NCBI GenBank assembly: GCA_041568755.1
Contig: JBFFZF010000001.1
Span: 1,033-65,032 of the forward strand
DNA from: Longimicrobiales bacterium
GTDB taxonomy: Bacteria; Gemmatimonadota; Gemmatimonadetes; Longimicrobiales; RSA9
DNA: 64,000 nucleotides
Direction of reading: 5' to 3'
Shown here: positions 7,652-45,969 of the stretch, in pieces
Position numbering within the stretch: the first letter of the stretch is position 1
Layout of the letters: every line of letters begins with the position of its first letter
Notes under the pieces: generated by a model
What the model saw: only the letters and a program-made list of their open reading frames with translations
What the model was told of the DNA's origin: nothing
The model's database searches: none
Translations under genes and position numbers: made by a program

Positions 7652-7704
7652 GGCCTCCAACCTACCGGGTCGGGGGGCCGGCCGCGAGCCCCCGGGCCGG
7701 CCGG

Positions 7705-8070: not shown

Positions 8071-8086
8071 ACCCGTGACGTACGTG

Positions 8087-13691: not shown

Positions 13692-14383
13692 AGTGGCGCA
13701 GCGTGTTCCGCCGCCGGCTGATCTCCGGCGTCGTCGTGATCCTGCCGGTGACCGCCACGCTTTTCGTCCTGTGGTGGATCTTCCGCCTTCTGGACGGACT
13801 GCTGGGCCGGTTCCTCTATCCGTGGCTGTCGAGCTTCATCCCGTGGATCGAGCTGCTGCCGGGGCTCGGCGTCGTCGTGCTCATCGCGCTGCTGGTCGGC
13901 ATGGGCTGGATCACCGAACGCGCCGTCGGCAAGCAGGTCGTGGAGGCCTGGCACCGGCTGCTCGACCGGCTGCCGCTCATCCGGCGCATCTATGCGGCGG
14001 CCCGGCGCATTGTCGGTACCGTCGTGGGCAAGGACCGACGGCCGTTCAACACGGTCGTGCTCATCGAGTATCCCTCGGACGGTCGCTGGTCGCTCGGCTT
14101 CCTCGCCGCGGACGCGCCGGCCGTGATCCAGGAGGTCGTGCCGGACAGCGTCTCCGTGTTCATCCCCTCCACGCCCAACCCGACGACGGGCTGGCTGGTG
14201 GTGCTGCCGCGCAGCCGTGTGCACGAGCTGGCGCTGACCGTCGATGAGGCGTTCACCCTCATCCTCTCCGGTGGCGCTGCCACCCCGGATCAGCTGGCCG
14301 ACGCGCGCGCCACCGATCACGGGGCGCCCGCGTCCGATGTCGGTAGCCTGTCCCCGGCCGCGGCGCACGGCGCGAGCGCATGA
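13688..14383 (+). CDS. DUF502-domain membrane protein
   Basis: ATGA overlap with ybeY. 'RRRLISGVVVILPVTATLFVLWWIFRLLDGLL' and 'IPSTPNPTTGWLVVLPR' are typical of DUF502. Confidence 0.75.
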   Translation: MKWRSVFRRRLISGVVVILPVTATLFVLWWIFRLLDGLLGRFLYPWLSSFIPWIELLPGLGVVVLIALLVGMGWITERAVGKQVVEAWHRLLDRLPLIRRIYAAARRIVGTVVGKDRRPFNTVVLIEYPSDGRWSLGFLAADAPAVIQEVVPDSVSVFIPSTPNPTTGWLVVLPRSRVHELALTVDEAFTLILSGGAATPDQLADARATDHGAPASDVGSLSPAAAHGASA

Positions 14384-16032
14384 GGCGGTGGCGCCGCGGC
14401 TTCGTCATCATCGCCCGGCTGGCGCCCTACATCCTCGCGTTTGTCCGTGACCGCCGCCGCTGGCTGCTGTTCGGCGATCCGGCCCGCCGGACCCCTGCGC
14501 ACCACGCGCGCCGCGCGGAAGCGCTGGTGCGCACGATCGCGGGACTGGGACCGACCTTCATCAAGCTGGCCCAGGTGTTCGCCGCGCGGGCGGACATCCT
14601 GCCGGAACCCTACCTCTCCCGCGTGGGCGAACTGCAGGACCGCGTGCCGCCGGACCCGTACGAGGACATCGAACGGGTCATCGTGGCCGAGCTGGGACGC
14701 CCGCCGGCGGAGCTGTTCGACGCCTTCGAGGCCGAGCCGGTCGCGGCGGCCAGCCTGGGCCAGGTCCACCGCGCCCGGCTGGGCAGCGATGAACTCGCCG
14801 TGAAGGTGCTGCGACCCGGCGTCGAGGAGCTGGTCGCAGTCGATCTCGAGATCTCGTTCCGGCTGCTGTTCCTGCTGAACGTGCTGTTCCGCAACCACCA
14901 CGTGCGCGCGCTCACGAACGTCATCCGTGAGTTCAGCGTGCGCGTCCGCGAGGAAATGGACTTCCGTTCCGAGGCGGCCAACATCGACCGGTTCCACCGC
15001 TACTTCACCGGCGAACGACGCGTGCGGGCGCCTGCCGTGCATGCGCAGTTCACGCGGCGCCGTGTGCTCGTCATGGAATGGATCGACGGCGATCGTGTGG
15101 ATCGTCTCGAGCCGCGCATCGACAAGGGCGACCTGGACCCGCGTGTCCTCATGGCGACGCTGGTCGAAACGTACCTGCGCATGATGCTCGTGGACGGGTT
15201 CCTGCACGCGGATCCGCACGCCGGCAACATCCTGGTCGAAGCCGATGGGACCATCGTTTTCCTGGACTGGGGCATGGTCCTGCAGCTGGACCGGTCGGCC
15301 CGGGACGCCATGCTGCGCACGGCGTTGGCGCTGGGCCGCAACGACCTCGATGGCATGATCAACGGCATGCACGCGCTGGGCATGATCGACCCGGCCATAT
15401 CGCGCTCGGAGATCCGCGACGCGGCGGTCGAGATCCTCGAGATCGTCGAGCGCATGCGCGAACTGGGTGTGCAGCGCGCGCAGCGCCTGGTCCACGAAAT
15501 CATGGACACGTTCTACACCTGGCCTCTCATCCTGCCGCGCGAGCTGGTCTACTTCTTCCGCGCAGCCGTCCTGCTCGAAGGCATAGGCATCCATTACGAC
15601 GCTGCATTCGATGGCCTGGCGACAGTCCGGCCGGTCATCCGGCGCATGCGCGGCGACCTGCTGCAGGTCACGGCGCGAGCACCGCGCGAGATCGCGCTCG
15701 GTGTGGTCGACGAGGTGCGCACCGGCTTTGCCGCGATCCGTGATGTCATCGCACGCGCCGAGCGGGAGGAGTTCCGCGTGCGCATCCACCCGCGGGACGT
15801 GCTGCACGGCCAGCGTTTCATCCTGCTCCAGGTCCGCCGGATCCTGCTCAGTCTGTTCGCGGTGACCATTGCGCTGATCACCTCCATCACGTTCATCACA
15901 CTGCGCAATTACTGGCTGCTCGTTGCCGGCCTCGTCATTGCCCTGATCATGTTCGTGATCGTGCTCTTCCTGCCCACGCACCTGCTCGAGAACCCGCTCC
16001 GCCATGCCCGTGGTCTGCGACCGGAACGCTGA
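14380..16032 (+). CDS. ABC1/UbiB-family atypical kinase
   Basis: 'GPTFIKLAQVFAARADILPEPY', 'AAASLGQVHRARL' and 'LHADPHAGNILV' are ABC1 kinase motifs. The C-terminus has TM helices. Confidence 0.88.
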   Translation: MRRWRRGFVIIARLAPYILAFVRDRRRWLLFGDPARRTPAHHARRAEALVRTIAGLGPTFIKLAQVFAARADILPEPYLSRVGELQDRVPPDPYEDIERVIVAELGRPPAELFDAFEAEPVAAASLGQVHRARLGSDELAVKVLRPGVEELVAVDLEISFRLLFLLNVLFRNHHVRALTNVIREFSVRVREEMDFRSEAANIDRFHRYFTGERRVRAPAVHAQFTRRRVLVMEWIDGDRVDRLEPRIDKGDLDPRVLMATLVETYLRMMLVDGFLHADPHAGNILVEADGTIVFLDWGMVLQLDRSARDAMLRTALALGRNDLDGMINGMHALGMIDPAISRSEIRDAAVEILEIVERMRELGVQRAQRLVHEIMDTFYTWPLILPRELVYFFRAAVLLEGIGIHYDAAFDGLATVRPVIRRMRGDLLQVTARAPREIALGVVDEVRTGFAAIRDVIARAEREEFRVRIHPRDVLHGQRFILLQVRRILLSLFAVTIALITSITFITLRNYWLLVAGLVIALIMFVIVLFLPTHLLENPLRHARGLRPER

Positions 16033-16073
16033 GGCCGTTGACACCGGCGCACGCGCACCCAGATCTTTGCGCC

Positions 16074-17180
16074 ATGGCTGACCCCGCACCGGAAAGCGCC
16101 GCATCCGCGCCGCCGGAACTCATCGGCCGCTTCCGGGCCGGCCAGCGCGCGGCGCTGGCCCGCATCATCTCCGTGGTCGAGAACCAGGGCACCGGCTTCC
16201 GCGCGCTGCTGCACGAGCTGCACGGCGCGACCGGGCGCGCGCACCGCCTCGGCATCACGGGTCCGCCCGGCGCCGGCAAGTCCACGCTCATCGCTGCGCT
16301 CATCGCGCACTGGCGCACCCGCGGGCAGACCGTTGGCGTCATCGCCGTCGATCCGACATCGCCGTTCACCGGCGGGGCGCTGCTGGGGGATCGCATCCGC
16401 ATGAACGACGTCGCGCTGGACGGCGGCGTCTTCATCCGCTCCATGGCCACGCGCGGCTCCCTGGGCGGACTCGCCCTGGCCACCCGAGAGGTCGCCGACG
16501 TGATGGATGCCTTCGGGTTCGATCGCGTGCTCGTCGAGACGGTGGGCGTCGGCCAGACCGAGCTGGACATCGCGGCCGCGGCGGACAGCACGGTCGTCGT
16601 GCTCGTGCCCGAGTCCGGGGACGGCATCCAGGCGATGAAGGCCGGCCTGATGGAGGTCGCCGACCTGTTCGTCATCAACAAGGCGGACCGGCCGGGCGCG
16701 GATCGCATGGTGCGGGACGTGTCCATGATGCTGCACCTGCGCATGGGCCAGGCGCTGCGCAACGTGCCCGCGCACCACGGCGTCGATCACGCGCGCGCCG
16801 CGCGGCGCGCCGGGGAGCCCGCACCGCCGGAGCAGCCGTCCGGCTGGGAGATCCCGGTCCTGCGCACCATTGCGCACGAAGGAGAGGGCGTCGACATGCT
16901 GGCGGCGACGCTCGATGAGCACCGCGCCTGGCTGGAGACCTCGGGTGAAGGCGATGAGCGTCGACGCGGGCGGTTGCGTCAGCGTGTCCGCGACGAGGTG
17001 GACCGGCGCCTGCGCGACCGGGTCTGGCGCGACAGCCCGGCGGCGCTCCTGCTGGACCAGGCGCTGCCCGATCTGGAAACCGGGGCGCGCACCCCGTACG
17101 CCGTGGCGGACGACATCCTGCAGCGCGTGCTGGGCCACGCCGCTGCCGGTCCGCCACGGGAACAGCCGATCCTTCCATGA
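16074..17180 (+). CDS. meaB: methylmalonyl-CoA mutase-associated G-protein chaperone
   Basis: 'GITGPPGAGKSTLIAAL', 'VDPTSPFTGGALLGDRIRM' and 'INKADR' are present. Start taken at ATG 16074. Confidence 0.9.
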   Translation: MADPAPESAASAPPELIGRFRAGQRAALARIISVVENQGTGFRALLHELHGATGRAHRLGITGPPGAGKSTLIAALIAHWRTRGQTVGVIAVDPTSPFTGGALLGDRIRMNDVALDGGVFIRSMATRGSLGGLALATREVADVMDAFGFDRVLVETVGVGQTELDIAAAADSTVVVLVPESGDGIQAMKAGLMEVADLFVINKADRPGADRMVRDVSMMLHLRMGQALRNVPAHHGVDHARAARRAGEPAPPEQPSGWEIPVLRTIAHEGEGVDMLAATLDEHRAWLETSGEGDERRRGRLRQRVRDEVDRRLRDRVWRDSPAALLLDQALPDLETGARTPYAVADDILQRVLGHAAAGPPREQPILP

Positions 17181-17258
17181 GTTGCGCGGGTCGAATCGCA
17201 CCGGCCCGTGCGGGGTAGCACAGCGGAGCCGCCCACCAGGGACAAGTACGAGACGAAC

Positions 17259-18989
17259 ATGAGCCTGATGAATCCGGGAGCCACCACCCGTTCCGCGGAC
17301 GCCGACGTCGCCGCGCGACTGGAGCGCCAGGAAGAGGAGCTGCGCGAACTGCGCGCCCGCCTGGCCGAATGGGAAGCGGCCTTCGACCGCCAGGAACGCA
17401 GACTCGCCGCCTTCGAGACCGTGTCCGGTGTACCCGTCGCGCCGCTGCACACGCCCGCAGACATCGCGGGCTGGGATTACCTGGATCGGCTCGGGTTCCC
17501 GGGTGAGTACCCGTTCACACGCGGACCGTACACATCGATGTACCGAACCCGGCTCTGGACCATGCGGCAGTTCGCCGGCTTCGGGACCGCGGAGGAGACC
17601 AACCAGCGGTACAAGTACCTGCTCGATCACGGGCAGACCGGACTGAGCGTCGCGTTCGACTTCCCCACGCTCATGGGCTACGATTCGGACCACCCGCGTT
17701 CGCTGGGCGAGGTGGGCAAATGCGGTGTGGCGATCTCGAGTCTGGCCGACATGGAGACGCTGTTCGACGGGATCCCGCTCGACCAGGTGTCCGTTTCCAT
17801 GACGATCAACGGACCCGCCATCATGCTGTTCTGTTTCTACGTGGTCGCGGCCGAGAAGCAGGGCGTGATGCCGGACCGGCTGCGCGGCACCGTGCAGAAC
17901 GACATCCTCAAGGAATACATGGCGCAGCACGCCTGGATCTATCCGGTCGAACCGGCGCTGAGTCTGATCGTCGACATGTTCGAGTGGTGCAGCCGTCACG
18001 CCCCCCGCTACAACCCGATCTCGATCAGCGGCTACCACATCCGGGAGGCCGGAGCCACGGCGGCGCAGGAGCTCGCGTTCACGCTGCGCAACGGATTCGA
18101 GTACGTCGAGCGGGGCATCGCGCGCGGTCTGGATGTCGACGACTTCGCACCCCGTCTGTCCTTCTTCTTCGACGTCCACAACGACCTCTTCGAGGAGATC
18201 GCGAAGTTCCGGGCGGCCCGCCGCATCTGGGCGCGGCACATGCGCGACGTCTACGGCGCGCAGCGGGACGAGTCGTGCCGCCTCCGCACGCACGCGCAGA
18301 CGGCGGGCGTGAGCCTCGTCGCCCAGCAGCCCGAGAACAACATCGTGCGTGTGGCCTACCAGGCGCTCGCCGCCGCGCTGGGCGGGACGCAGTCGCTGCA
18401 CACCAACTCGATGGATGAGACGCTGGCGCTGCCCACGGAGAAAGCTGTCCGCATCGCGCTCCGGACCCAGCAGATCCTGGCGTTCGAGACCGGTGTGGCG
18501 AACGTGATCGATCCGCTGGCTGGCTCCTTCTACGTGGAGTCGCTGACCGACAGGCTGGAGCAGGAGGCCGAGGAGATCTTCGCGGAGATCGAACGCTTCG
18601 GTGGTGTGGTGCAGGGGCTCGAGTCCGGCTACTTCCAGCAGGAGATCGCGCTCAGCGCACAGCGCCAGCAGCAGGCCATCGAGACGGGCGCGCAGACCGT
18701 CGTGGGCGTGAACGCGTTCACCGAGGGCAACGAGGACGCCGACATCGACATCCTGCGCATCGATGATGCGCCGGAACGGCGCCAGCGCGAGCGGCTGGCC
18801 GAACTGCGCGGCCGGCGCGATGCCGGCCGCGTGGAACGCGCGCTGACGACGCTGGAGAGCACGGCCCGCGACAGCGGCAACGTCATCGAGCCGATGCTGG
18901 AGTGCGTGCGCGCCTACTGCACGCTATTCGAGATCCGCTACGCGCTCGAGAAGGTGCATGGCGCGTACCGCGAGCCCATCTACTTCTGA
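17259..18989 (+). CDS. methylmalonyl-CoA mutase, catalytic (N-terminal) subunit without a B12 domain
   Basis: 'YPFTRGPYTSMYRTRLWTMRQFAGFGTAEETNQRYKYLL..GQTGLSVAFDFPT' is the MCM TIM-barrel signature. The protein ends before any B12-binding domain. Confidence 0.92.
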   Translation: MSLMNPGATTRSADADVAARLERQEEELRELRARLAEWEAAFDRQERRLAAFETVSGVPVAPLHTPADIAGWDYLDRLGFPGEYPFTRGPYTSMYRTRLWTMRQFAGFGTAEETNQRYKYLLDHGQTGLSVAFDFPTLMGYDSDHPRSLGEVGKCGVAISSLADMETLFDGIPLDQVSVSMTINGPAIMLFCFYVVAAEKQGVMPDRLRGTVQNDILKEYMAQHAWIYPVEPALSLIVDMFEWCSRHAPRYNPISISGYHIREAGATAAQELAFTLRNGFEYVERGIARGLDVDDFAPRLSFFFDVHNDLFEEIAKFRAARRIWARHMRDVYGAQRDESCRLRTHAQTAGVSLVAQQPENNIVRVAYQALAAALGGTQSLHTNSMDETLALPTEKAVRIALRTQQILAFETGVANVIDPLAGSFYVESLTDRLEQEAEEIFAEIERFGGVVQGLESGYFQQEIALSAQRQQQAIETGAQTVVGVNAFTEGNEDADIDILRIDDAPERRQRERLAELRGRRDAGRVERALTTLESTARDSGNVIEPMLECVRAYCTLFEIRYALEKVHGAYREPIYF

Positions 18990-19049
18990 TGGTCGTGACA
19001 TCGCAGCACGGGTCAGTCACGATCCCGTCCCGCCCTTCATCCTGACGAA

Positions 19050-20408
19050 ATGCACGAGGTCGCTTCCGAACCCGTATTGAGCCTGGTCAGCGTCCTGTGG
19101 CGGCTGGGGCTGGCTCTGTTTCTGGTGCTGGCCAACGCCTTCTTCGTGGCCGCGGAGTTCGCGCTGGTCGGAGCGCGGCGGACTCGGATCGATGCGCTGG
19201 CGCGGGCCGGCAACCGGCGCGCCCGCCACGTGGCCGCCGCGATCAGGCGCATGGACCATTACATCTCCGGAACCCAGCTGGGCATCACACTCGCATCGCT
19301 GGGACTGGGCTGGGTCGGCGAGTCGACCATCGCCGCCCTGATCATCGGCCTGTTCCAGGGCGTGCCGGCGCCGTGGGACATCATCAGCACGCACCTGGTC
19401 GCTGGTACGATCGCCTTCGCGTTCATCACGTTTCTGCACATCGTGCTGGGTGAGCTGGCGCCCAAGTCGGTCGCCCTGCTGTATCCCGAGTCGACCAGCA
19501 TGTGGCTCGCCGGCCCGCTCATCATCTTCTCGAAGGTCTTCACGCCGTTCATCCTGGTACTCAACGGCACCGCCAACCGCCTCCTGCGTGCCCTCGGCCT
19601 GCGCGCCCCCACCGAGAAGGAACGGGTCCACAGGCCGGAGGAGATCGAGATCCTGCTCAAGCAGAGTTACGAGCACGGCCTGCTCAGCGAGGAGCCGGTC
19701 GAAATGATCCGCAGCGTGTTCCATCTGTCCGAGACCAGCGCCGCAGAGGTGATGACCCCGCGCACCGAAGTCCTCGCGCTGCCCGTGGAATCAGACATGG
19801 ACAGCGCGGTGGATTTCATTCTGTCGATGGGCCACTCGCGTTACCCGGTCTACGAGGGGACGATCGACCGCATCGTGGGTGTCGTCCTGGCCCGCGACGT
19901 GTGGAAGGCGCAGCGGGAGGGCGTGACCGACCTGCGCCGCATCGTCCGCGACGTACCGTTCGTGCCGGACACCAAGTCGATCGAGCAGCTGCTCCGCGAC
20001 ATGCGCGAGGAGCAGACCCACATAGCGGTCCTGATCGACGAATTCGGCGGAACCGCGGGTATCGTCACCATCGAGGACATCGTCGAAGAGATCGTCGGCG
20101 AGATCGACGATGAGCTGGATGAAGCGGCGCCCGAGCCCATCGACCTGGAGGGCGGACGCCTCGGTCTCCATGGCAAGATGACGATCTCCGAACTCAACGA
20201 GCAGTTCGGCCTGAAACTGCCCGACGAGGACTACACGACGGTGGGCGGCTTCGTGCTGGGCCGGCTGGGCCGCGTCGCGAAGGTCGGTGACGTGATCACG
20301 ATGCCGGACGGTATTCTCAAAGTCCTGTCCATGAAAGGGCGGCGCGTCGACCGCCTGGAGCTCACCCTCAAGCGCGAGCCGCGCACGCTGCGGGCGGAAG
20401 AAGATTGA
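19050..20408 (+). CDS. CNNM/HlyC/CorC-family transporter (DUF21 + CBS pair + CorC_HlyC)
   Basis: N-terminal 4-TM DUF21 region, 'VMTPRTEV' entering the CBS pair, and 'VLIDEFGGTAGIVTIEDIVEEIVGEI'. Confidence 0.88.
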   Translation: MHEVASEPVLSLVSVLWRLGLALFLVLANAFFVAAEFALVGARRTRIDALARAGNRRARHVAAAIRRMDHYISGTQLGITLASLGLGWVGESTIAALIIGLFQGVPAPWDIISTHLVAGTIAFAFITFLHIVLGELAPKSVALLYPESTSMWLAGPLIIFSKVFTPFILVLNGTANRLLRALGLRAPTEKERVHRPEEIEILLKQSYEHGLLSEEPVEMIRSVFHLSETSAAEVMTPRTEVLALPVESDMDSAVDFILSMGHSRYPVYEGTIDRIVGVVLARDVWKAQREGVTDLRRIVRDVPFVPDTKSIEQLLRDMREEQTHIAVLIDEFGGTAGIVTIEDIVEEIVGEIDDELDEAAPEPIDLEGGRLGLHGKMTISELNEQFGLKLPDEDYTTVGGFVLGRLGRVAKVGDVITMPDGILKVLSMKGRRVDRLELTLKREPRTLRAEED

Positions 20409-33740: not shown

Positions 33741-35288
33741 ATGAAACGCGAGATCCTCATCTCGGCTACGCCGCAGGAAACGCGCGTGGCCATCCTCGAG
33801 GACAACATCCTCGTGGAGTTCATGGTCGACCAGGCGGAAAGCGAGCGCATGGTCGGCGATGTCTATCTCGGCCACGTGCAGGCCGTCCTGCCCGGCATCC
33901 AGGCCGCCTTCGTCGACATCGGCATGGAAAAGGCCGCGTTCCTGCACGTCTCGGACGTCAGCCAGGACGACGAGGACGACGAGGACGGCAACGGCAACGG
34001 CGGCGGCAACGGCGGCGGTAACGGTGCCCGTTCGCGCCGCTACCCGCCCATCCAGGACCTGGTGCAGAAGGGCCAGCGCCTGATGGTCCAGGCCACCAAG
34101 GAGCCGATCGGCACCAAGGGACCGCGCGTCACCACGCACATCTCCCTGCCGGGCCGGTTCCTGGTCTTCATGCCCGACTCCAGCCACATCGGCGTGAGCC
34201 GGAAGATCGAGACGCGCGACGAGCGCAGCCGCCTGCGCGCGATCGCCAAGGAAGTCGTGCCCAGAAACGGCGGCGGCGGCGTGATCATCCGCACGGCCGG
34301 CGAGGAGCTCACACGCGAAGTCTTCGAGCGCGAGTACCGCATGCTGGCCGACACCTGGGCCAGGATCGAGAAACGTGCAAAGGGCGCACGGCCACCCGCG
34401 CTCATCCACCGCGAGGCCAAACTCACCGGCGGCATCATCCGCGACGTGTTCACCCAGAAGGTCGATGGCCTGATCTGCGACAGCAGGCAGGTCCACAACG
34501 AGGTCGCCAACTACCTCAAGGGCATCGATCCGGCCATGCTGGAACGGCTCCACCTCTACACCGATCCGGTGCCGCTCTTCGACAAGTACGGCATCGAGGA
34601 CGCCATCCGCGAGGCCTTCCAGCGCCGCGTCGACCTGCCCTCCGGCGGCTACATCATCATCGAGCCGACCGAGGCGCTCGTCTCCATCGACGTCAACACC
34701 GGCCGCTACACCGGTCGCAAGGACCCCGAAAAGACCATCCTGAAGACCAACCTGGACGCGGCCCGTGAGATCGCCCGCCAGCTCCGCCTGCGCGATGTCG
34801 GCGGCATCATCGTCGCCGATTTCATTGACATGGAAACGCGCAGCAACCAGGAGCGCGTGCTCCAGGAGCTGCGCACCTACCTGAACCGGGACCGCGCCCG
34901 CACGCGCGCCTTCCAGGTCTCCGAGCTCGGCCTGGTCGAGATGACGCGCCAGCGCGTGCGCGCCTCCCTCTGGCATTCGCTCACCGAGGGGTGCTCACAC
35001 TGCGGCGGCACCGGCCGCGTGTTCCGGCCCGATACCGTGCTCCGCCGCATCGAACGGGCCGCCCGCCGGATCTCCGTCCAGCAGGCCGCCCGCGACCTCA
35101 CGATCCGGGTCCACCCGGAAGTCGCCCTCTACCTCATCGAATCCGAGCCCGACTTCCTGCGCCGCCTGCGCTCGTCCCTCCACCTTACCATCGACCTGCG
35201 CGACGATCCGCTCATGCGCCAGGACGAGTTCCGACTCCTGGCCGGCGCGGCCGAGGCCGACATCACCGGCAAGTACGCCATCGGCTGA
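33741..35288 (+). CDS. rng: ribonuclease E/G family endoribonuclease
   Basis: 'MKREILISATPQETRVAILEDN', the S1 region 'VGDVYLGHVQAVLPGIQAAFVDIG', and 'EPTEALVSIDVNTG..TG' are present. Confidence 0.9.
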   Translation: MKREILISATPQETRVAILEDNILVEFMVDQAESERMVGDVYLGHVQAVLPGIQAAFVDIGMEKAAFLHVSDVSQDDEDDEDGNGNGGGNGGGNGARSRRYPPIQDLVQKGQRLMVQATKEPIGTKGPRVTTHISLPGRFLVFMPDSSHIGVSRKIETRDERSRLRAIAKEVVPRNGGGGVIIRTAGEELTREVFEREYRMLADTWARIEKRAKGARPPALIHREAKLTGGIIRDVFTQKVDGLICDSRQVHNEVANYLKGIDPAMLERLHLYTDPVPLFDKYGIEDAIREAFQRRVDLPSGGYIIIEPTEALVSIDVNTGRYTGRKDPEKTILKTNLDAAREIARQLRLRDVGGIIVADFIDMETRSNQERVLQELRTYLNRDRARTRAFQVSELGLVEMTRQRVRASLWHSLTEGCSHCGGTGRVFRPDTVLRRIERAARRISVQQAARDLTIRVHPEVALYLIESEPDFLRRLRSSLHLTIDLRDDPLMRQDEFRLLAGAAEADITGKYAIG

Positions 35289-36088: not shown

Positions 36089-37522
36089 GTGATCCTCAGC
36101 CTGCATCGGAACCGGGTCATGCGGGGGCTGGTCGTCATCATTGGCGGCATGGTCCTGCTGGATGTGCTCATCGACGTGCTCCAGTTCGGCTTCGGGCATG
36201 CATCGCTGGGCGGTCTGCAGCCGCTGTTCGATGTGGGTGACGAAGGGACGATTCCGACGTGGTTCGCAGCGGTCCAGCTGCTGGGCGCCAGTGCACTGCT
36301 CGCCCTGATCGCCACTGTCGAGCAACGGTGCGGGCGCGGGGCGATGCCATGGTGGGTCCTCGCTGTCGGCTTTCTCTACCTCTCCTTCGATGAGGCGGCG
36401 GAAGTTCACGAGCAGGCGGGGCTGCTCCTGCGCGGCATCGTGAAGAGGGATGGCATCTTCTACTTCCGCTGGGTCGTCATCGCCGTGCCCCTGTGTATCG
36501 CGTTGTACCTGCTGTTCCGCGGTTTCCTTCGGCGCCTGCCGGCGGGTACGCGCCGCGGGACGCTGCTGGGTGGCGCACTCTTCCTCGGCGGTGCGGTCGG
36601 CATGGAGATGGTGAGCGGCTGGCTCATCTCCCGCGGCCTGTCGGGGGATCTGGGGAACGGACTGCTGAACGGGCTCGAGAACGCGCTGGAACTGGCCGGC
36701 ATAGCCGTCTTCGTCGGTGCGCTGTTCGCACACATCGAGGGTCTCGAGCCGACGCCGGATTCCACGGGCCACCCGCCGGCAACAGCCGCGGCGCACAACC
36801 GGGTTCAGCCGATCGATCTGCGTCTGAGGCCGGAGCGCTGGGGGCGCGGCCTCGTGGTTGCCGCGATCGCCATCCTGCTCGCCACGGCGCTGGCTGTCGC
36901 CTACCGCTTCGGGCCTGCCGCCGGGAAGTTGGGGCTCCTGACCTCGCTTCTCGACCCGACCCGGAACCGGAGCCTGCCGGTCTGGGGCGTCTCCATGCTT
37001 GCGGCCCTGGCGGCGAGTTTGAGCCTGTTCGCGCGACCCGGAGACAGAACGGGCACGGCCGGGGAGCGCGTCCGCTTCGGCCTCGTGCTCGGCCTGGTTG
37101 CTCTTTCGGTCGATCAGGCCATGGGGTTCCCCGGGCACGGCGCACCGATCTTCCCGCTGGCGGCGCTGGTGCCCGGCCGCCTCGCGTCCGTCTGGCAGGT
37201 GACGGGTACCCTCCTGCTGTGCGTGTTGCTGCTGTCGATGTTCGTTGCGACCCGGAGCCTGCGTGGACCCATCCGCCGGACGTGGTCGGCGTCAGGCGTG
37301 CTCCTCGCACTGGGGTGGGCCGGAACGCCGCTGCTGCTCTCCCGGGTTGCGCCAAGAAATCCGGCGGCCGGCGTCATCGGCGGCGCGGGGGTAGCCGTGC
37401 TTCTCGCGGGTCTGATCCTGTTCGTCTCCGCCGTGCCGATGGTGATGGCCAGGGGCGAACCGATCCTCGAAGCCGATCCCGGAGCGCGCGTCGAGCCGCT
37501 CGCTTCGTCCGGCCATTCCTGA
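36089..37522 (+). CDS. hypothetical polytopic membrane protein (477 aa)
   Basis: Long ORF at native high GC with many hydrophobic helices. No family recognised. GTG start; an ATG at 36119 is possible. Confidence 0.6.
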   Translation: MILSLHRNRVMRGLVVIIGGMVLLDVLIDVLQFGFGHASLGGLQPLFDVGDEGTIPTWFAAVQLLGASALLALIATVEQRCGRGAMPWWVLAVGFLYLSFDEAAEVHEQAGLLLRGIVKRDGIFYFRWVVIAVPLCIALYLLFRGFLRRLPAGTRRGTLLGGALFLGGAVGMEMVSGWLISRGLSGDLGNGLLNGLENALELAGIAVFVGALFAHIEGLEPTPDSTGHPPATAAAHNRVQPIDLRLRPERWGRGLVVAAIAILLATALAVAYRFGPAAGKLGLLTSLLDPTRNRSLPVWGVSMLAALAASLSLFARPGDRTGTAGERVRFGLVLGLVALSVDQAMGFPGHGAPIFPLAALVPGRLASVWQVTGTLLLCVLLLSMFVATRSLRGPIRRTWSASGVLLALGWAGTPLLLSRVAPRNPAAGVIGGAGVAVLLAGLILFVSAVPMVMARGEPILEADPGARVEPLASSGHS

Positions 37523-37534
37523 GCCGGCGCGCGA

Positions 37535-37690
37535 TCAGGCGGCGGAGGATGCAGCGCCCTCCGGCGCCATTTCACCCGACGCCGCGTGGGTGTGAGCGGG
37601 CGCCTGCGCGCGCGTCAGCAGGCTGACGGTGATCAGAGCGATGATGTTCACGAGCGCAATTCGGTCTATCCAGCTTGGTGTGGCAGACCC
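37535..37690 (-). pseudogene. orphan 3' fragment of a sodium:solute symporter gene (last TM helix plus tail)
   Basis: Minus-frame translation gives '..PSWIDRIALVNIIALITVSLLTRAQAPAH..*'. It aligns with the end of the intact SSS protein, 'GVIVNIAVLVVVSLLTK' (9/17 identical). An in-frame stop lies upstream at 37742-37744 and no start is available. Confidence 0.65.
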
Positions 37691-37704
37691 TCGCTCGCTG
37701 GATC

Positions 37705-37741
37705 GGGAGCGGGCACCGGCGAACCGTCGGTGTCCGCTCCC
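37705..37741 (-). terminator. GC-rich hairpin downstream of the 62-codon ORF, at the left junction of the islet
   Basis: On the minus strand: GGGAGCGGACACCG, a 9-nt loop, then CGGTGCCCGCTCCC (14-bp stem with 1 mismatch). It begins 13 nt after the ORF stop. No U-tract. Confidence 0.4.
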
Positions 37742-37754
37742 TCAGCAGCTCCAC

Positions 37755-37943
37755 TCAGTAGCAATCCGTCCCTCTGAGGATCTTCTGCCAGCGCTTATCC
37801 CAGTCGACCTCAGTCTGGCAGCTCTGCGGGGGCTCGTCGTCGGTCCACGCCTGGATGAAGGTCACAACCAAGACAAATCTCGGCTCGGCGCTCCGATCCA
37901 ACACGGCCACGCGACTTGGTGCGGCGGCGGCGGCTCTGGCCAT
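37755..37943 (-). CDS. hypothetical 62-aa protein (ORFan)
   Basis: The ATG at 37943 is preceded by AGGAGG with a 4-nt spacer. Sequence: 'MARAAAAAPSRVAVLDRSAEPRFVLVVTFIQAWTDDEPPQSCQTEVDWDKRWQKILRGTDCY'. The 90-aa track version lacks an RBS. Confidence 0.5.
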   Translation of the reverse strand: MARAAAAAPSRVAVLDRSAEPRFVLVVTFIQAWTDDEPPQSCQTEVDWDKRWQKILRGTDCY

Positions 37944-37971
37944 GATGCCTCCTAGGCCTGGGTGGTGTGTC

Positions 37972-38000
37972 ATGCTAGTATCCATGGTATCTTTTCGCAA
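37972..38000 (-). promoter_or_regulatory. candidate promoter TTGCGA-N17-TAGCAT for the 62-codon ORF
   Basis: Read on the minus strand: TTGCGA (38000-37995), a 17-nt spacer, then TAGCAT (37977-37972). It lies 28 nt upstream of the ATG at 37943. Confidence 0.45.
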
Positions 38001-38020
38001 GATCATGTTCTCGCACTGTG

Positions 38021-38059
38021 TTGACATCTGGCCACACCTGCGATAGCATGCCTATGCTA
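38021..38059 (+). promoter_or_regulatory. candidate promoter TTGACA-N17-TAGCAT with an overlapping palindromic operator, TAGCAT-GCCT-ATGCTA
   Basis: TTGACA at 38021-38026, a 17-nt spacer, then TAGCAT at 38044-38049. Its inverted partner ATGCTA lies at 38054-38059. Confidence 0.55.
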
Positions 38060-38174
38060 ATTATGACGTCCTGTAGCCAATGAGACCCTTTCGGCTGCCA
38101 ACGGCATCGCCTGGTCGCCGGTTTCTTTGAGTTCTCGGATGGGCCCGAGCGTCTCAGCACAAGGCGGTGAGGAA

Positions 38175-39347
38175 ATGGAAGAGTTGAGGGCGAGGAAGCG
38201 GCTGGATGCACGCGAAAAGATTGATATGGTCATGAAGCGTTTTGGTCCGCTCCGCCAAGGCAAGAGAATGCCAACGCTGCAGCAGCTCAAGTCGCTCTAT
38301 TTTCCGGAGCGTGACCCCTCAGTAATCTCTCGTGCGATAACGAGCGCGTTCAAAGAAGGTCTCGTCGCCGTTGTGGAAGTTCGCCAGCCATCCGCATCGC
38401 TGCCCGTTAGAAAGCCGCTGCTGGAGAAGGCCCTCCTTAAGATCTACAGGGATCTACACGGCGCCATCGTGATCGATGACGATGACGATTCCCTTGGGCA
38501 ACGCGAAGCCGGCGATCGACTTCACGAGAAATTGGGCTTAGCGATGGCGGAAGCGCTGTCGAGTGGGTCTATGTTCAGGGATGGAGACGTCATCGGCCTT
38601 GGCAGCGGCCGGGGCGTGTATTATACCGTGGCGGCGTTGGAGTCGCTAACACGTGTCGACAAACTCAGAACGCAGTCCCTCACTCTCGTATCTTTGACCG
38701 GAGACATGCACGTTCGCGATCATAGCAAGCAGCTGAATTTTGTCATGGATGCAAACGACCACATCAGCATCCTTGGGAGATGTTTCGGTCCCCCAATCGG
38801 CCTGCACAAGGTTTATAGCCGGGGTGTTTTCGACCCACAGGGCGCGTTCACTGGTCCAGTGCCCGACATCGCCCTCGTTGGTGTAGGCGCTTTGGTAGAA
38901 GGCCATCGGTTGTTCGATTTTGAGCCGACCGACCGCGACGATCCGCTTTTCGATGAGCGGCGTGACATTCAAGAGCTCGTTCGACTCTCTTCTCGTCTTA
39001 CTGAACTATACGGCGGCGAGTACTGTCCAGTTGGAGATATTTCCAATTACCTGTTCTACGTCCCGCCACCACGAGGACGAAACGACGTGGATGAGGGCAT
39101 TCGTGACCAACTGGTGAGCGAATTGAAGAAATACATCAAGCGACTGAACAAGAAACTCGTCACGATTCAGGAAGACCAGCTTGCAGACGTCAACACGATC
39201 ATTCTGGTAGCGGGCACTGCCTGGAAACGACAGGCGATCCATTCTTTGTTGACGGGCGGCGCGGACGGCGAGATGATTCGGACGCGAATACGGCATTTGT
39301 GCACCGATCGAACAACAGCAGAAGAGCTCATTGACATGAACGGCTGA
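38175..39347 (+). CDS. atypical SorC/CggR-like protein (HTH plus sugar-phosphate-binding-like domain), 390 aa
   Basis: 'DPSVISRAITSAFKEGLVAVVEV' is HTH-like. 'DVIGLGSGRGVYYTVAAL' and 'IILVAGTAWKRQAIHSLLTGG...HLCTDRTTAEELI' follow the SorC effector-domain pattern. Low GC. Start ATG 38175 follows GGTGAGG; alternatives are 38127 and 38139. Confidence 0.6.
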   Translation: MEELRARKRLDAREKIDMVMKRFGPLRQGKRMPTLQQLKSLYFPERDPSVISRAITSAFKEGLVAVVEVRQPSASLPVRKPLLEKALLKIYRDLHGAIVIDDDDDSLGQREAGDRLHEKLGLAMAEALSSGSMFRDGDVIGLGSGRGVYYTVAALESLTRVDKLRTQSLTLVSLTGDMHVRDHSKQLNFVMDANDHISILGRCFGPPIGLHKVYSRGVFDPQGAFTGPVPDIALVGVGALVEGHRLFDFEPTDRDDPLFDERRDIQELVRLSSRLTELYGGEYCPVGDISNYLFYVPPPRGRNDVDEGIRDQLVSELKKYIKRLNKKLVTIQEDQLADVNTIILVAGTAWKRQAIHSLLTGGADGEMIRTRIRHLCTDRTTAEELIDMNG

Positions 39348-39419
39348 ATCTGGCTGGGCGGTCGTTGCAACAGAATCAAGTGACGTAGTGATGATTGACT
39401 GCCAGCTTCCACAGTGCCA

Positions 39420-40886
39420 CTAACTGGGCTCCTCGACGAACGCCGCGACGTGTCGCGAAGTCTGCTGCTTCGTAAGCAGGCTCACCACCACGAGCACGGC
39501 GATGTTCACGATCACGCCCAGAATGCCCTCGTGGATCTCGTATGGCCGGAGGTCCGGCTTCCACAGGAAGAAGATGGTCGTTGCGGAACCGGCGATGAGG
39601 CCGGACAGCACGCCCGGCGTGGTGGCGCGCCGCCAGTAGAGTGCCGCGTACACGGGCGGGGCGATCTGGTCGATCAGGCCGTACGAGGTGAGCAGCAGCC
39701 AGACCAGGTTGGGCTGCGCGACGACGGCCAGATAGTAGGCGATCGCGCCGACCGAGAGCACGAGCCCCTGCATGATGTGCCGGCGCCGCTGTTCGTCGAC
39801 CTTGAAGAAGGGCGCGATGCCGTCCTCGATCGCGATCGAGGCGGCCGCATGCAGCAACCCGTCGCCCGTCGACATGGAAGCGGCCAGCGCCCCCGCGCAG
39901 AACAGCCCGACGATGATCGCCGGCATGCCGGTCTCGAGCAGCAGGTGGGGCAGGATGTGGTCCGGGTTGTCCGGCGCGCTGGCGAACAGCACGCCCGCGA
40001 ATCCGACGAGCAGCAGCGGGATGAGGAAGAGCTGGAACGTCGGATACAGCACGACGCTGCGGCGCAGTGTGCGCTCGTCACGGGCCGTGAACGCCTTCAT
40101 GAAGATGTGCGGCCACATCGCGATGTCGATCGCGGACGACAGGATGGCGGTCGAGTAGCCGCCCCAGCTCCAGCGGGTCCCGTCCGCGCGCAGCCCGGGC
40201 AGCTCGAGCAGTTCCGGTCGCGCCGCAGCGATGCTCTCGAACATCGGGCCGATGCCGCCGTACAGCAGGTGCGGGATGTACAGGCCGACGCCCCACGCCA
40301 CCGCCACCATCACGAAGCCCTGGAACACGTTGGTCCAGCCGACCGCGGTGGCGCCGCCCAGCAGGACGTAGACGATGACCACGCCGTACGCCAGCGCCGC
40401 GCCCAGCCAGAACGGCACGTGTCCTTCCGTCACGGTAGTGAAGACGATGCCGGCCCCGCTCATCTGCAGCATCACATAGGGCACGAACGCGGCCACCGAG
40501 ATGACGGCGAGGAGCACGGACAGCGTGCGGGCAGGGAAACGGCCGGTGACCAGCTGCGCCTGCGTCACGTAGCCGTGCGACCGTCCGAGCCGGGCGGCGC
40601 GCGCCCCGACGAAATACCACGGGGCCATGCCGAGCACCCCGTAGCCCAGGATGTAGAGCGCAGCGACACCGCGCGAGTAGGCCCAGCCCGGTCCGCCCAG
40701 GAAGGCGAAGGCGCTGAACACGGTGCCGCCGATGATGAAGTAGAGCGGCAGCAGCCCGAACTGGCGATCCGCGGCGACGTAGCCGGTGACGTTGTGGCTG
40801 GCGCGCCGCCCGGACACGAGGCCGACGACGAGCGTGAAGACGAGATAGGCGGAGACGATGGCGGTGACGATGTGCCAGCGCTCCAT
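39420..40886 (-). CDS. sodium:solute symporter (SSS) family transporter
   Basis: 488 aa and polytopic. 'YVAADRQFGLLPLYFIIGGTVFSAFAFLGGPGWAYSRG' is typical of the SSS family. Confidence 0.88.
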   Translation of the reverse strand: MERWHIVTAIVSAYLVFTLVVGLVSGRRASHNVTGYVAADRQFGLLPLYFIIGGTVFSAFAFLGGPGWAYSRGVAALYILGYGVLGMAPWYFVGARAARLGRSHGYVTQAQLVTGRFPARTLSVLLAVISVAAFVPYVMLQMSGAGIVFTTVTEGHVPFWLGAALAYGVVIVYVLLGGATAVGWTNVFQGFVMVAVAWGVGLYIPHLLYGGIGPMFESIAAARPELLELPGLRADGTRWSWGGYSTAILSSAIDIAMWPHIFMKAFTARDERTLRRSVVLYPTFQLFLIPLLLVGFAGVLFASAPDNPDHILPHLLLETGMPAIIVGLFCAGALAASMSTGDGLLHAAASIAIEDGIAPFFKVDEQRRRHIMQGLVLSVGAIAYYLAVVAQPNLVWLLLTSYGLIDQIAPPVYAALYWRRATTPGVLSGLIAGSATTIFFLWKPDLRPYEIHEGILGVIVNIAVLVVVSLLTKQQTSRHVAAFVEEPS

Positions 40887-40888
40887 GG

Positions 40889-41131
40889 TCAGGCGCCTCC
40901 CGTCCCGCGTCCGCTGCCGCTGCGGTCTTCCTCACGCGTGATCGCGCGCTCGAGGATAAGCAGGAAAACGGCGCCGATCGCCACCCACAGCGCGGACCAG
41001 AACAGCGCGAACGGCAGGCCCAGCACGAGCGGACGTACGCGGTTGAAGGGCAGGACGCCCGGCCAGGTCAGGGCGATGGTGAGCGCGACCAGGTAGACGA
41101 TGACGAGCGTGCGGGCCGCGCGTACGGACAT
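40889..41131 (-). CDS. small 2-TM accessory membrane protein (DUF3311-like)
   Basis: Start at ATG 41131. Two TM helices. Sits immediately upstream of the SSS gene, as DUF3311 genes usually do. Confidence 0.6.
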   Translation of the reverse strand: MSVRAARTLVIVYLVALTIALTWPGVLPFNRVRPLVLGLPFALFWSALWVAIGAVFLLILERAITREEDRSGSGRGTGGA

Positions 41132-41132
41132 C

Positions 41133-41372
41133 TCAGGACTTCTCGCGCAGGGCGCGGGCGGCCGCATCGAGCGCGGCCGTGAGTTCGTCGATCAGCTCGC
41201 GGGTGGCGGACAGCGTCAGACCCTCGGCGCCCATCTGGGTGCGCAGCCCACGGATCTTGCGCGCCGCGTTCTCGATGCGCGAAACCGGATCTCCGGCGCC
41301 CGACAGGTCGTCCCCGAACGGATTCGTGCGGGGCCGGCTCTCGTCGTCATCGCCAAACGGGTTCCTGGTCAT
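41133..41372 (-). CDS. hypothetical 79-aa protein with two NPFGDD repeats
   Basis: The ATG at 41372 is preceded by AGGGAG. 'MTRNPFGDDDESRPRTNPFGDDLSG...' is followed by a helical tail. Its stop lies 1 nt from the next start. Confidence 0.55.
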   Translation of the reverse strand: MTRNPFGDDDESRPRTNPFGDDLSGAGDPVSRIENAARKIRGLRTQMGAEGLTLSATRELIDELTAALDAAARALREKS

Positions 41373-41385
41373 GACGGCTCCCTTG

Positions 41386-42165
41386 TCAGCGGCCGGTGAA
41401 GCGCGCGTCCCGCTTCTCCAGGAAGGCACGCACGCCTTCGACGCGGTCTTCGCTCGCGAACGCGGTGATGAAGAGGTCCCGCTCATGCGCCAGGCCGGCG
41501 GCCAGCGGCGCTTCCAGCGCGGCGCGGACGGCAGCCTTGGCCAGCGCGAGCGCGACCGGTGACGAGGCGGCCAGCCCGCGCGCGATCTCGAGCGTCCGGT
41601 CGCGCAGCTCGGCGTCTTCGAAGACCCAGTCGACGAGTCCGATGCGTTCAGCCTCGGTCGCGTCGATCAGTTCGCCGGTCAGGATCATGCGCAGGGCGCG
41701 GCCGGTGCCCACCAGCCGGGGCAGCCGCTGCGTGCCACCGCCGCCGGGCAGCAGGCCCAGCCGGATCTCGGGCTGGCCCAGTCGCGCGGAGCGGGCCGCG
41801 ATGCGCAGGTCGCAGGCCAGCGCGATCTCGCAGCCGCCGCCCAGCGCGTAGCCGTTGATCATGGCCAGGGTCGGTTTCTCGAATGCGGCGATCTCGTCGA
41901 ACGGACGGCGGCCGCTCATGGCCACGCGCTGCTCGACAGGCGAGCGCTCGGCGAACTCCGCGATATCCGCACCGGCGATGAACGCGCGGTCGCCGGCGCC
42001 GGTGAAGAGGACGACGCGCACATCATCGTCGGCACGAAGCTGGTCTAGCGCGGCGATCAGCTCCTTCCGGACCGTCGCATTGAGGGCATTGCGCTTCTCC
42101 GGCCGGTTGATGACGACCGTGGCGATGTGATCCTCGATTTCGACGAGCAGTGTTTCCCAGCTCAT
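41386..42165 (-). CDS. enoyl-CoA hydratase (crotonase)
   Basis: 'INRPEKRNALN', 'AFIAGADI', 'TLAMINGYALGGGCEIALACDLRIA' and 'GQPEIRLGLLPGGGGTQRL'. Confidence 0.92.
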   Translation of the reverse strand: MSWETLLVEIEDHIATVVINRPEKRNALNATVRKELIAALDQLRADDDVRVVLFTGAGDRAFIAGADIAEFAERSPVEQRVAMSGRRPFDEIAAFEKPTLAMINGYALGGGCEIALACDLRIAARSARLGQPEIRLGLLPGGGGTQRLPRLVGTGRALRMILTGELIDATEAERIGLVDWVFEDAELRDRTLEIARGLAASSPVALALAKAAVRAALEAPLAAGLAHERDLFITAFASEDRVEGVRAFLEKRDARFTGR

Positions 42166-45147: not shown

Positions 45148-45969
45148 TCAGCGACCCTTGAACGACGCTTTCCGCTTCTCGACGTACGCCGCCAGCCCTT
45201 CCTTCGCGTCGCTGCTCTGGAACAGCAGCTGCTGGAGCTCGCGTTCGACCGCGAGCGCGTCCTGGTAGGGCAGTTCGGCGCCGGTCTGCACGGAGCGCTT
45301 GATGTTGCCGATCGCTTTGGCCGCCATGTTGGGCGGCGTGAAGCGCCGGGCGTATTCCATAACCTTGTCCAGGAACTCGTCTCGGCTCGCGGCCTCCCAG
45401 ACTTCGTTCACGATGCCGAGCTCGCGGGCTTCCTCGAAATCGAAGGTGCGGCCCGTGACCATGAGTTCGATCGCGCGCGTCTTGCCGACCAGCCGGGCAA
45501 GCCGCTGCGTGCCTCCCGTCCCGGGCAGCACACCCAGGTTGACTTCGGGCAGGCCGATCTTGCCCGCGCCGGCCCGGGCGATGCGCAGGTCGGCGGCCAT
45601 GGCGATCTCCAGCCCGCCGCCGACGGTGTGCCCGCTGAGCGCCGCGATCACGAGCTTGGGCGTCTGCTCGAACCGGTTCAGCGTCTCGTTGGCGTGGAGA
45701 CAGAAGTAATACTTGAACTGGGGCGTAACGGTGTTGAGCATCTGGATGTTGGCGCCGGCACAGAAGAACTTCTCGCCGGCCCCGACCAGCACGATGACGT
45801 ACACGTCATCGTCCATCCGGGCCCGGAGGATCGCGGAATCCAGGGCCTGCATCATCTCGTAGGTGTAGGTGTTCGCCGGCGGGTCGTCGAGCGTGAGGAT
45901 GGCGACGCCGTCCTGCATCTCGTACGACACGAGCGGCTTGGTCTGCTGCTCTTCCATGACTCTGGTCAT
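45148..45969 (-). CDS. enoyl-CoA hydratase/isomerase family protein
   Basis: The ATG at 45969 is preceded by GGAGG at 6 nt. 'FFCAGANI', 'VIAALSGHTVGGGLEIAMAADLRIA' and 'GLPEVNLGVLPGTGGTQRL'. Confidence 0.9.
   Translation of the reverse strand: MTRVMEEQQTKPLVSYEMQDGVAILTLDDPPANTYTYEMMQALDSAILRARMDDDVYVIVLVGAGEKFFCAGANIQMLNTVTPQFKYYFCLHANETLNRFEQTPKLVIAALSGHTVGGGLEIAMAADLRIARAGAGKIGLPEVNLGVLPGTGGTQRLARLVGKTRAIELMVTGRTFDFEEARELGIVNEVWEAASRDEFLDKVMEYARRFTPPNMAAKAIGNIKRSVQTGAELPYQDALAVERELQQLLFQSSDAKEGLAAYVEKRKASFKGR

Follow-up and report, generated by a model that had tools for sequence, protein, structure and literature searches.

What is a 1.7-kb stretch of low guanine-plus-cytosine (GC) content doing between two convergent genes of a GC-rich bacterium, and how did it come to be there? 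The question arises in a 64-kb window (the whole stretch of DNA analyzed here, positions 1,033 to 65,032 of contig JBFFZF010000001.1 from the Longimicrobiales assembly GCA_041568755.1), in which the segment at 37657 to 39392, hereafter the islet, lies between a gene for a 477-amino-acid membrane protein and a gene for a sodium:solute symporter. The islet holds two open reading frames (ORFs) and nothing else: orf62, of 62 codons, and a divergent gene of 390 codons for a SorC-like regulator. A preliminary description, made from the letters alone, had proposed the segment as foreign DNA. We conclude, with a probability of roughly 0.6, that it is a recently acquired, strain-variable islet of a Gemmatimonadota population and that its cargo is an intact SorC/DeoR-type regulator that would repress its own gene through a palindrome.

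The islet is foreign in composition and varies between strains

37657 to 39392, no strand: strain-variable low-GC segment (the islet), delimited by alignment to the islet-free contig L014 and by GC and tetranucleotide statistics
37531 to 37656, minus strand: remnant of the 3' end of a second sodium:solute symporter gene, in the left flank outside the islet, found by tblastn

Bins of 1 kb along the window had GC contents of 0.66 to 0.75, except for those at 38001 to 39000 (0.561) and 39001 to 40000 (0.614). At a finer scale, 300-bp windows gave 0.51 to 0.59 over approximately 37800 to 39600 and about 0.70 on either side, and 1750-bp windows, whose median was 0.698, fell to 0.561 at 37851 (robust z = -9.5), the second-lowest region of the window reaching 0.647 (z = -3.6). 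Measured against the average of the window, tetranucleotide distance was greatest at 37751 (z = 14.7). GC at third codon positions (GC3) was 0.62 in the SorC-like gene and 0.79 in orf62, compared to 0.84 to 0.94 in seven host genes, and the codons AAA, TTA, ATA, TTT, ATT, and TCT showed an enrichment of about 5- to 10-fold or more in the SorC-like gene over the host genes, TTA and TCT being entirely absent from the host set. Composition unlike that of the host, one of the marks of a genomic island, was found in GC, tetranucleotides, and GC3 alike, and the islet is the sole compositional anomaly of the 64-kb window. A mildly low GC content at 51.6 to 52.4 kb was also considered and rejected as an anomaly; a 599-amino-acid ORF lies there, whose counterpart in the sister contig L008 has GTP_EFTU and LepA_C domains.

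Because scans of a species-representative genome collection with the SorC-like protein and with the 477-amino-acid membrane protein returned no relatives, our synteny evidence comes from contigs of sister metagenome-assembled genomes (MAGs), which are 99.5 to 99.8% identical to the window where they align, and from one related genome. NCBI assemblies contain proteins identical to those of the window. The host belongs to the Gemmatimonadota; its RNase G shares 90% identity with the protein of a 'Gemmatimonadetes bacterium' MAG and about 75% with Longimicrobiales proteins. Eight sister MAGs carry the segment (filled contigs L006-L009, L011-L013, L042, and L043). One sister contig, L014 (GCA_041606175.1), is free of it, with flanks 99.8% identical to the window: its positions 1-2755 correspond to window 42162..39408 and its positions 2832-2957 to window 37656..37531 (the symporter-remnant flank, 99.2% identical), and between the two matches lie 76 bp foreign to the window. 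Two further contigs reach no farther than a junction or its vicinity: L010 ends at 39408 and L041 at 37643. In the related genome L046 (a 1.9-Mb contig), whose RNase G is 82% identical to that of the window, the order is L21, L27, a phosphoesterase gene, a 15-bp gap, the orthologous symporter gene (72% identical), and DUF3311, with no islet and with the symporter gene directly convergent with its neighbor. Presence and absence among close relatives, a second mark of genomic islands, was found in that L014 is empty, eight MAGs are filled, and L046 is empty. The islet is thus accessory, strain variable, and still foreign in composition.

Mismatches among sister contigs were sparser inside the islet (1.29 per kb, or 6 in 4643 aligned bp) than on the left (3.88 per kb) and right (2.76 per kb) flanks. 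About 14.6 would have been expected inside the islet (Poisson estimate, P ~0.01), a result that is no more than suggestive because the sister contigs are not independent, and the low density would fit a younger common ancestry of the islet copies.

That a low-GC segment was wrongly joined to a Gemmatimonadota contig, as an assembly or binning chimera, we hold to be scarcely credible. Each of the eight sister contigs reaching into the islet does end within it (at 37826, 38366, 38696, 38719, 38724, 38879, 39104, and 39269), so assemblers struggle there, which suggests low or uneven coverage of the islet, or microdiversity, in those metagenomes. Against this, the window contig spans the entire islet, the left junction is crossed by the independent assembly L042 and the right one by L008, L009, L011-L013, and L043, and both junctions have identical bases in assemblies made independently from different samples; the join is therefore not chimeric.

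Junction sequences and the route of insertion

39393 to 39408, no strand: 16-mer GATTGACTGCCAGCTT at the right junction, found by alignment to the islet-free allele

In plus-strand orientation, the islet-free allele reads ...GTTCACGAGCG / A GATCGACTGCCAGCTT GGCGC...(59 bp)...GCGAC / TCCACAGTGCC..., and the filled allele of the window reads ...GTTCACGAGCG / CAATTCGGTCTATCCAGCTTGGTGTGG...islet...GTGAT GATTGACTGCCAGCTT / CCACAGTGCC.... Comparison of the indel puts the islet boundaries at 37657 and 39392/39407. The 16-mer at the right end agrees with GATCGACTGCCAGCTT of the empty allele at 15 of 16 positions, and its final 7 bp, CCAGCTT, have a second copy near the left end, at 37670-37676. Since 59 bp of the empty allele have no counterpart in the filled one, neither can be derived from the other in a simple way. 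Hidden homology of these 59 bp to the left end of the islet was considered and rejected as not significant (P = 0.08).

We found no terminal inverted repeats at the islet (its ends align with a best score of 12, and shuffled sequences average 12.6) and no clean target-site duplication, since the flanking copies do not form one; the combination of the two that marks an insertion sequence or a miniature inverted-repeat transposable element was accordingly not seen. Neither the islet nor its annotated flanks (26-51 kb) contain a recombinase, integrase, or transposase gene, and no tRNA gene lies closer than 49306, some 10 kb away. Among the mobility hallmarks of genomic islands (an integrase or transposase, a tRNA target, direct repeats), the 7-bp repeat alone was present. 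An origin in defense systems or phages was rejected, as PADLOC and PHROGs returned nothing for either ORF at E-values up to 1, and a tblastn search with the regulator found no match in the plasmid, phage, or IMG/VR collections.

The left flank adds a historical detail. With the intact symporter (39420-40886) as the tblastn query, 24 amino acids of the remnant at 37531-37656 (LVNIIALITVSLLTRAQ..., minus strand) matched the C terminus of that neighboring symporter at 50% identity (E = 0.002, in a small search space). The remnant is present in both filled and empty alleles; it is therefore older than the islet polymorphism, and the spacer was a site of earlier decay. As read from the junction sequences, these patterns suggest insertion by illegitimate or short-homology recombination and not by a transposase or a self-encoded integrase.

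Much of the preliminary description stands. Sliding-window GC, GC3, tetranucleotide statistics, and codon counts all agree with its view of the segment as the window's only compositional anomaly, of low GC and frequent in AT-rich codons that are rare elsewhere, and its proposal of foreign DNA gains from L014 and L046 besides. Its layout of a 62-codon ORF on the minus strand (37755-37943), a spacer of about 230 bp (231 bp), and a 390-codon SorC-like ORF on the plus strand (38175-39347) was recovered, as was its report of no integrase, transposase, tRNA, or terminal inverted repeats and of nothing resembling a defense, toxin, or mobility enzyme. It had placed the segment at 37691-39419, which is the right locus with boundaries that the indel comparison moves. 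Its question whether the symporter gene is directly convergent with its neighbor where the segment is missing has the answer yes in L046, across 15 bp and with a different neighbor gene.

The larger ORF as a predicted SorC/DeoR-type regulator

38175 to 39347, plus strand: predicted 390-amino-acid SorC/DeoR-type transcription regulator (Pfam, AlphaFold model, Foldseek, and profile search against PDB)
38202 to 38360, plus strand: predicted N-terminal helical DNA-binding domain, approximately residues 10-62 (model helices and conserved columns)
38412 to 39344, plus strand: predicted effector-binding domain of NagB/RpiA-like fold, approximately residues 80-390 (Foldseek, PDB profile, and conserved motifs)

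Members of the SorC family combine an N-terminal DNA-binding domain with a phosphosugar-binding effector domain and act as oligomeric repressors at palindromic or direct-repeat operators (PMC11229326). The product of the larger ORF matched Pfam PF04198 (Sugar-bind) with 43.4 bits against a cutoff of 27 (E = 3e-11), and the NCBIfam DeoR and LsrR models matched it weakly; PF04198 was also matched by 22 of 23 family members. An alternative in-frame TTG start at 38127 would lengthen it to 406 amino acids. Its AlphaFold model, made with 23 homologues, had a predicted local distance difference test score (pLDDT) of 87.7 and a predicted template modeling score (pTM) of 0.79. When this model was compared to PDB with Foldseek, the top matches were all SorC-family structures (SorC 2w48, LsrR 4go1/4l5i, DeoR 4oqq, and CggR 8r3g/3bxe), at E-values of 4e-14 to 1e-8 and with several alignments over the full length, those to 2w48 and 4go1 covering about 390 columns; 2w48, 4go1, 4oqq, and 8r3g lay at 1e-14 to 1e-10. 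The effector domains of SorC, LsrR, DeoR, and CggR gave target-normalized template modeling (TM) scores of 0.6-0.75, and the more distant matches were glucosamine-6-phosphate deaminases and 6-phosphogluconolactonases, as expected for this fold. A profile of the family searched against PDB matched DeoR 8r7y (E = 8e-11) from DeoR residue 6 to the C terminus.

In the N-terminal domain, the model places helices at residues 12-28, 35-42, and 48-60 with pLDDT mostly at 86-96, and the presumed recognition helix, RDPSVISRAITSAF, is conserved; helix-turn-helix matches to Pfam at the sequence level were weak and occurred in just a few family members. Given this short helical N terminus, we place the protein with the DeoR-type subclass. 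The effector domain carries the family-specific motifs GLGSGRGVY, LDADxH, GVGxLxxGHR, and YCPVGD, and the polar invariant residues H117, R146, D192/D194, H244, D288, N325, and K351 align with the ligand-loop region. All sister contigs have the gene intact; it varies at two synonymous sites and by one substitution, M191L. Both domains of the defining SorC architecture, a PF04198-type effector-binding domain and an N-terminal helix-turn-helix DNA-binding domain, were thus found or modeled, and we are confident in the predicted assignment of the larger ORF as a SorC/DeoR-type transcription factor. Location beside a carbohydrate operon under its control, which is usual in the family and not strictly defining, was not seen at the islet.

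A candidate operator over the predicted promoter of the regulator gene

37944 to 38174, no strand: divergent control region of 231 bp between orf62 and the SorC-like gene, from the sequence
38021 to 38049, plus strand: sigma-70-like promoter TTGACA-17 nt-TAGCAT facing the SorC-like gene (promoter scan)
38044 to 38059, no strand: perfect palindrome TAGCAT-GCCT-ATGCTA, a candidate operator that overlaps the -10 hexamer
37972 to 37977, no strand: extra half-site ATGCTA, possibly a second half-operator, 82 bp upstream of the right arm of the palindrome

The sigma-70-like promoter agrees with the consensus at 10 of 12 positions and is one of four promoter-like sites in the control region, where 0.5 would be expected. 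The extra half-site is not statistically significant alone. Nowhere else in the window does the palindrome occur with two or fewer mismatches, so no regulon sites were found there. Its arms recur upstream of L015 (TAGCAT-GTCCCA-ATGCTA) and L026 (TAGCAA-TATGTC-TTGCTA), which are the two closest metagenome homologues, at distances of 114 and 151 bp, and the pattern appears nowhere else in 50 fetched loci. The arm motif was present in 3 of 22 upstream regions, compared to a shuffle mean of 0.028, and when any 5-mer arm was allowed, 1 of 100 shuffles reached 3. Across the family, exact k-mer counts in upstream regions did not rise above those of shuffles, and palindromes as such were not enriched. 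These sequence patterns suggest that autorepression through the palindrome is a reasonable expectation for this subclade.

A structured RNA in the spacer was tried as a further candidate and rejected: folding was no stronger than in shuffles (z = +0.46), no Rfam match was better than E = 1.2, and at gathering thresholds Rfam reported the distant tRNA only.

The small divergent ORF is a doubtful gene

37755 to 37943, minus strand: orf62, 62 codons; a strong ribosome-binding site, AGGAGG, precedes its ATG by 5 nt
37705 to 37741, no strand: GC-rich hairpin with 17-nt arms and a 3-nt loop, 88% complementary, an inverted repeat just 3' of orf62

Two NCBI assemblies call orf62 as a gene, and it has no match in Pfam, NCBIfam, PADLOC, or PHROGs. 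The single-sequence AlphaFold model is a four-strand beta meander (pLDDT 71.6) with no significant match among PDB folds (best E = 0.16). Small divergent ORFs occupy a similar position beside the closest homologues of the regulator but encode unrelated membrane or secreted peptides. The hairpin downstream has no U-tract and was not called by the terminator scan; it could be a terminator. We regard orf62 as a doubtful ORFan, a putative gene.

On three counts these results depart from the preliminary description. The control region that it called structured folds like shuffled sequence; the two-gene cassette is unsupported as a conserved unit, as orf62 has no homologue and the neighbors of the family are not conserved; and its view that no function could be assigned was too pessimistic for the larger ORF, given the predicted transcription factor.

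A rare clade of regulators, mostly without a conserved partner

A word-indexed search of 5.8 billion proteins yielded 30 relatives of the regulator at 29-40% identity, and a profile search of 1.84 billion representatives yielded 316 clusters at E < 1e-30 and 675 at E < 1e-10. The clade, with proteins of 375-430 amino acids, is rare but real. We compared 26 metagenome loci and four from look-ups. At 20 of the 22 loci with measurable flanks, the regulator gene had a lower GC content than its flanks. All-against-all BLASTP of 169 flanking ORFs revealed no conserved neighbors beyond near-duplicate loci and one L025/L036 pair. The neighbors are a mixture of housekeeping genes (among them those for valyl-tRNA synthetase, glutamine synthetase, G6PD, a hydrogenase, and an outer-membrane protein) with an occasional gene for restriction-modification, a helicase, a transposase, or an integrase.

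A divergent partner, a protein of 436-459 amino acids, is common to three distant lineages (L025, L036, and L047-L050); compared in pairs, its copies show 28-31% identity (E 1e-28 to 1e-57).

L025 3685-5064, L036 4177-5535, and L047 1384-2694, minus strand: partner gene, divergent to the SorC-like gene

The partner has a Rossmann-type N terminus, the motifs xKPxD and DHY(R/L)xK, and no Pfam match; its best profile match in PDB is a Gfo/Idh/MocA-type oxidoreductase (E = 0.009). Such a Gfo/Idh/MocA-like protein, as judged by remote similarity, would fit a sugar-linked role of the clade, and it may represent an uncharacterized sugar dehydrogenase family controlled by these regulators. The window has no oxidoreductase-like partner gene.

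Two loci of the clade have other company. In a Pyrinomonadaceae MAG (L001), a nucleotidyltransferase-domain gene (PF01909, NTP_transf_2; 9236-9985, plus strand) overlaps the regulator stop with its start by 4 bp; the stop-overlapping downstream genes of L001 and L025 are unrelated to each other. A deltaproteobacterial homologue (L004, 503-7679) belongs to an island that also contains SMC/AAA_23 and AAA_16 ATPases, a phage-type integrase, and an SNF2 helicase, with two proteins without a Pfam match after the regulator, a mobile- or defense-like context unlike most other loci.

Neighboring genes

The gene that adjoins the islet on the left (36089-37522, plus strand) encodes a 477-amino-acid multipass membrane protein without a Pfam, NCBIfam, PADLOC, or PHROGs match. 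In L046, the gene after L27 instead encodes a 927-amino-acid phosphoesterase; the stretch from L27 to the symporter therefore varies between genera. That genome also has rve-type and IS1-like transposase genes at 11542-19590, between RNase G and L21/L27. In the sister contig L007 (MAG GCA_041590535), RNase G is called in two pieces (322 and 152 amino acids; 7647-9194, window ~33741-35288), and its alignment to the window has six gap columns, which points to a frameshift or an assembly error of that MAG. Downstream of the symporter gene, in a cluster like those of fatty-acid beta-oxidation, two enoyl-CoA hydratase paralogues (41706-41841 versus 45483-45621) are about 76% identical over 140 bp, which is ordinary paralogy.

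Weighing the explanations

We propose that the islet inserted into a nonessential spacer between two convergent genes, beside the decayed symporter remnant, and that its functional cargo would be one SorC/DeoR-type transcription factor with an N-terminal helix-turn-helix and a NagB-like effector-binding domain. By analogy with DeoR, CggR, and LsrR, an oligomer of the regulator would bind TAGCAT-N4-ATGCTA over the -10 element of its own promoter and repress its own gene, and possibly the divergent orf62 too, if this is a real gene. A phosphorylated sugar-like metabolite would presumably bind the effector domain, upon which the regulator would leave the DNA.

Several observations weigh against this proposal. 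Eight sister MAGs are filled and one contig is empty, so loss after an older gain is a possible course of events, and it is the direction, gain over loss, that we infer. The junctions are complex and give no clean mechanism, with their 7-bp CCAGCTT repeat, shared 16-mer, and 59 bp specific to the empty allele. The islet contains no sugar-catabolic target gene, and the phosphate-loop motif of its regulator is GSGRGVY, as against SWGTTMY in DeoR. Regarding the operator, the palindrome alone is not significant (P = 0.33 against shuffles), L015 and L026 are mutually close, so that the recurrence of the arms amounts to about two independent lineages, and an out-of-sample test failed, as P0015 (L047) has the same RDPAVISRAI helix and no such palindrome. 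For orf62, no homologue was found among the 5.8 billion proteins at E-values up to 10, and the promoter scan gave no promoter-like site.

If the islet were instead ancestral to the species, L014 would represent one strain that lost it recently, and an older acquisition or functional constraint would account for the low GC. The filled alleles in eight of nine informative sister MAGs speak for this, as do the intact gene with its mostly synonymous variation and the fact that genes of this family lie below the GC of their flanks almost everywhere, so that low GC could be a family property. We consider this unlikely, because the 59 bp of the empty allele are missing from the filled allele, which is not what a simple deletion produces, because GC3 (0.62 versus 0.84-0.94) shows no drift toward the host, and because mismatches are fewer inside than outside and L046 has no islet. 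The same empty allele bears on the idea of a small integrative element, or the remnant of one, moved by site-specific recombination at a CCAGCTT core with a recombinase encoded elsewhere. Its junctions would be TCTAT-CCAGCTT-GGTGTGG on the left and GATTGACTG-CCAGCTT-CCACAG on the right, which predicts the empty site CAATTCGGTCTATCCAGCTTCCACAGTGCC and the circular junction GATTGACTGCCAGCTTGGTGTGGCAG; the allele observed differs from the predicted GGTCTAT-CCAGCTT-CCACAG. A 7-bp direct repeat does exist (37670-37676 and 39402-39408), GAT(C/T)GACTGCCAGCTT is common to the right end of the islet and the empty allele, and the family gene occurs in unrelated contexts, sometimes beside integrase, transposase, or restriction-modification genes. 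Such a short repeat is weak evidence, however. Recombinase, transposase, and tRNA genes are missing from the islet and its immediate surroundings, terminal inverted repeats are absent, and the protein has no match in plasmid, phage, and IMG/VR collections; we find this explanation improbable.

The two ORFs might also form a selfish or defensive module of a repressor and a small effector, like toxin-antitoxin or cI/cro pairs, and not a metabolic regulator at all. Their divergent layout invites the thought, with a small ORF, a repressor-type gene, and a region of about 230 bp whose palindrome covers the promoter; small divergent ORFs with strong ribosome-binding sites lie at a similar distance from the closest homologues, the gene is accessory and strain variable, and some family loci adjoin restriction-modification or helicase genes. 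Yet the small ORFs share no sequence (a soluble beta protein here, a membrane peptide or a secreted protein there), neither PADLOC nor PHROGs gave a match, most family loci lie among housekeeping genes, and three lineages have the oxidoreductase-like partner in that place, which makes a module of this sort very unlikely. Also improbable is the broader thought that the SorC-like clade is a mobile, self-contained, single-gene sensor-regulator that moves into unrelated genomes together with its own operator, or has a NagB-like domain with an extra activity besides ligand sensing, the small ORFs being cargo or effectors. Cited for it are gene GC below that of the flanks, mostly no conserved partner, strain variability at this locus, and a ligand-loop signature absent from characterized members; the positive support consists of the low GC and the missing conserved partner gene.

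Recent acquisition of a single regulator, the reading that we prefer, makes the islet an ordinary horizontal gene gain and not a novel type of system, and its regulator a further member of a known family; no new mechanism, defense system, or mobile element is indicated. What the locus offers is gene-content microdiversity resolved to the base in uncultured Gemmatimonadota: strains at 99.7% identity differ by the gain or loss of one regulator gene. The locus also draws attention to a rare, uncharacterized SorC branch with the signatures GSGRGVY, LDADxH, and YCPVGDICN, and its candidate operator, together with the oxidoreductase-like partner in some lineages, opens the clade to simple biochemistry.

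Comparison with known systems

A literature search on SorC genes on genomic islands returned nothing relevant. Small genomic islets in general have atypical composition, are present or absent in near-identical strains, and lie between convergent genes, all of which holds here. Unlike the usual ones, this islet is 1.7 kb long, has no integrase, tRNA target, or long direct repeats, and carries a single regulator and not a gene cluster.

The regulator has the same domain order as the DeoR-type SorC regulators (Bacillus subtilis DeoR 8r7y/4oqq, Klebsiella pneumoniae SorC 2w48, and Escherichia coli LsrR 4go1), and its fold matches over the whole chain at E 1e-12 to 1e-14. The operators of DeoR are palindromes that overlap the promoter (PMC11229326), as the candidate site of the islet does with its predicted promoter. 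Identity to solved members of the SorC family is just 15-18%. The protein is about 80 residues longer than DeoR-type members, with helical insertions that the model places at ~240-280 and 307-325, and the loop aligned to SWGTTMY of DeoR is GSGRGVY, with an invariant Arg. In contrast to DeoR-type members, it has no adjoining sugar-catabolic operon and is located on a strain-variable islet.

CggR, the central glycolytic genes repressor of B. subtilis (8r3g/3bxe), shares the fold of the effector domain. Its DNA-binding domain is a winged helix of about 100 residues, and it uses tandem operators downstream of the transcription start (PMC11229326), whereas the islet regulator has a short N-terminal domain and a candidate operator that overlaps the -10 element. 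CggR is autoregulated and is released from DNA by phosphorylated sugars (PMC11229326), and by analogy this is the mechanism that we propose for the regulator of the islet.

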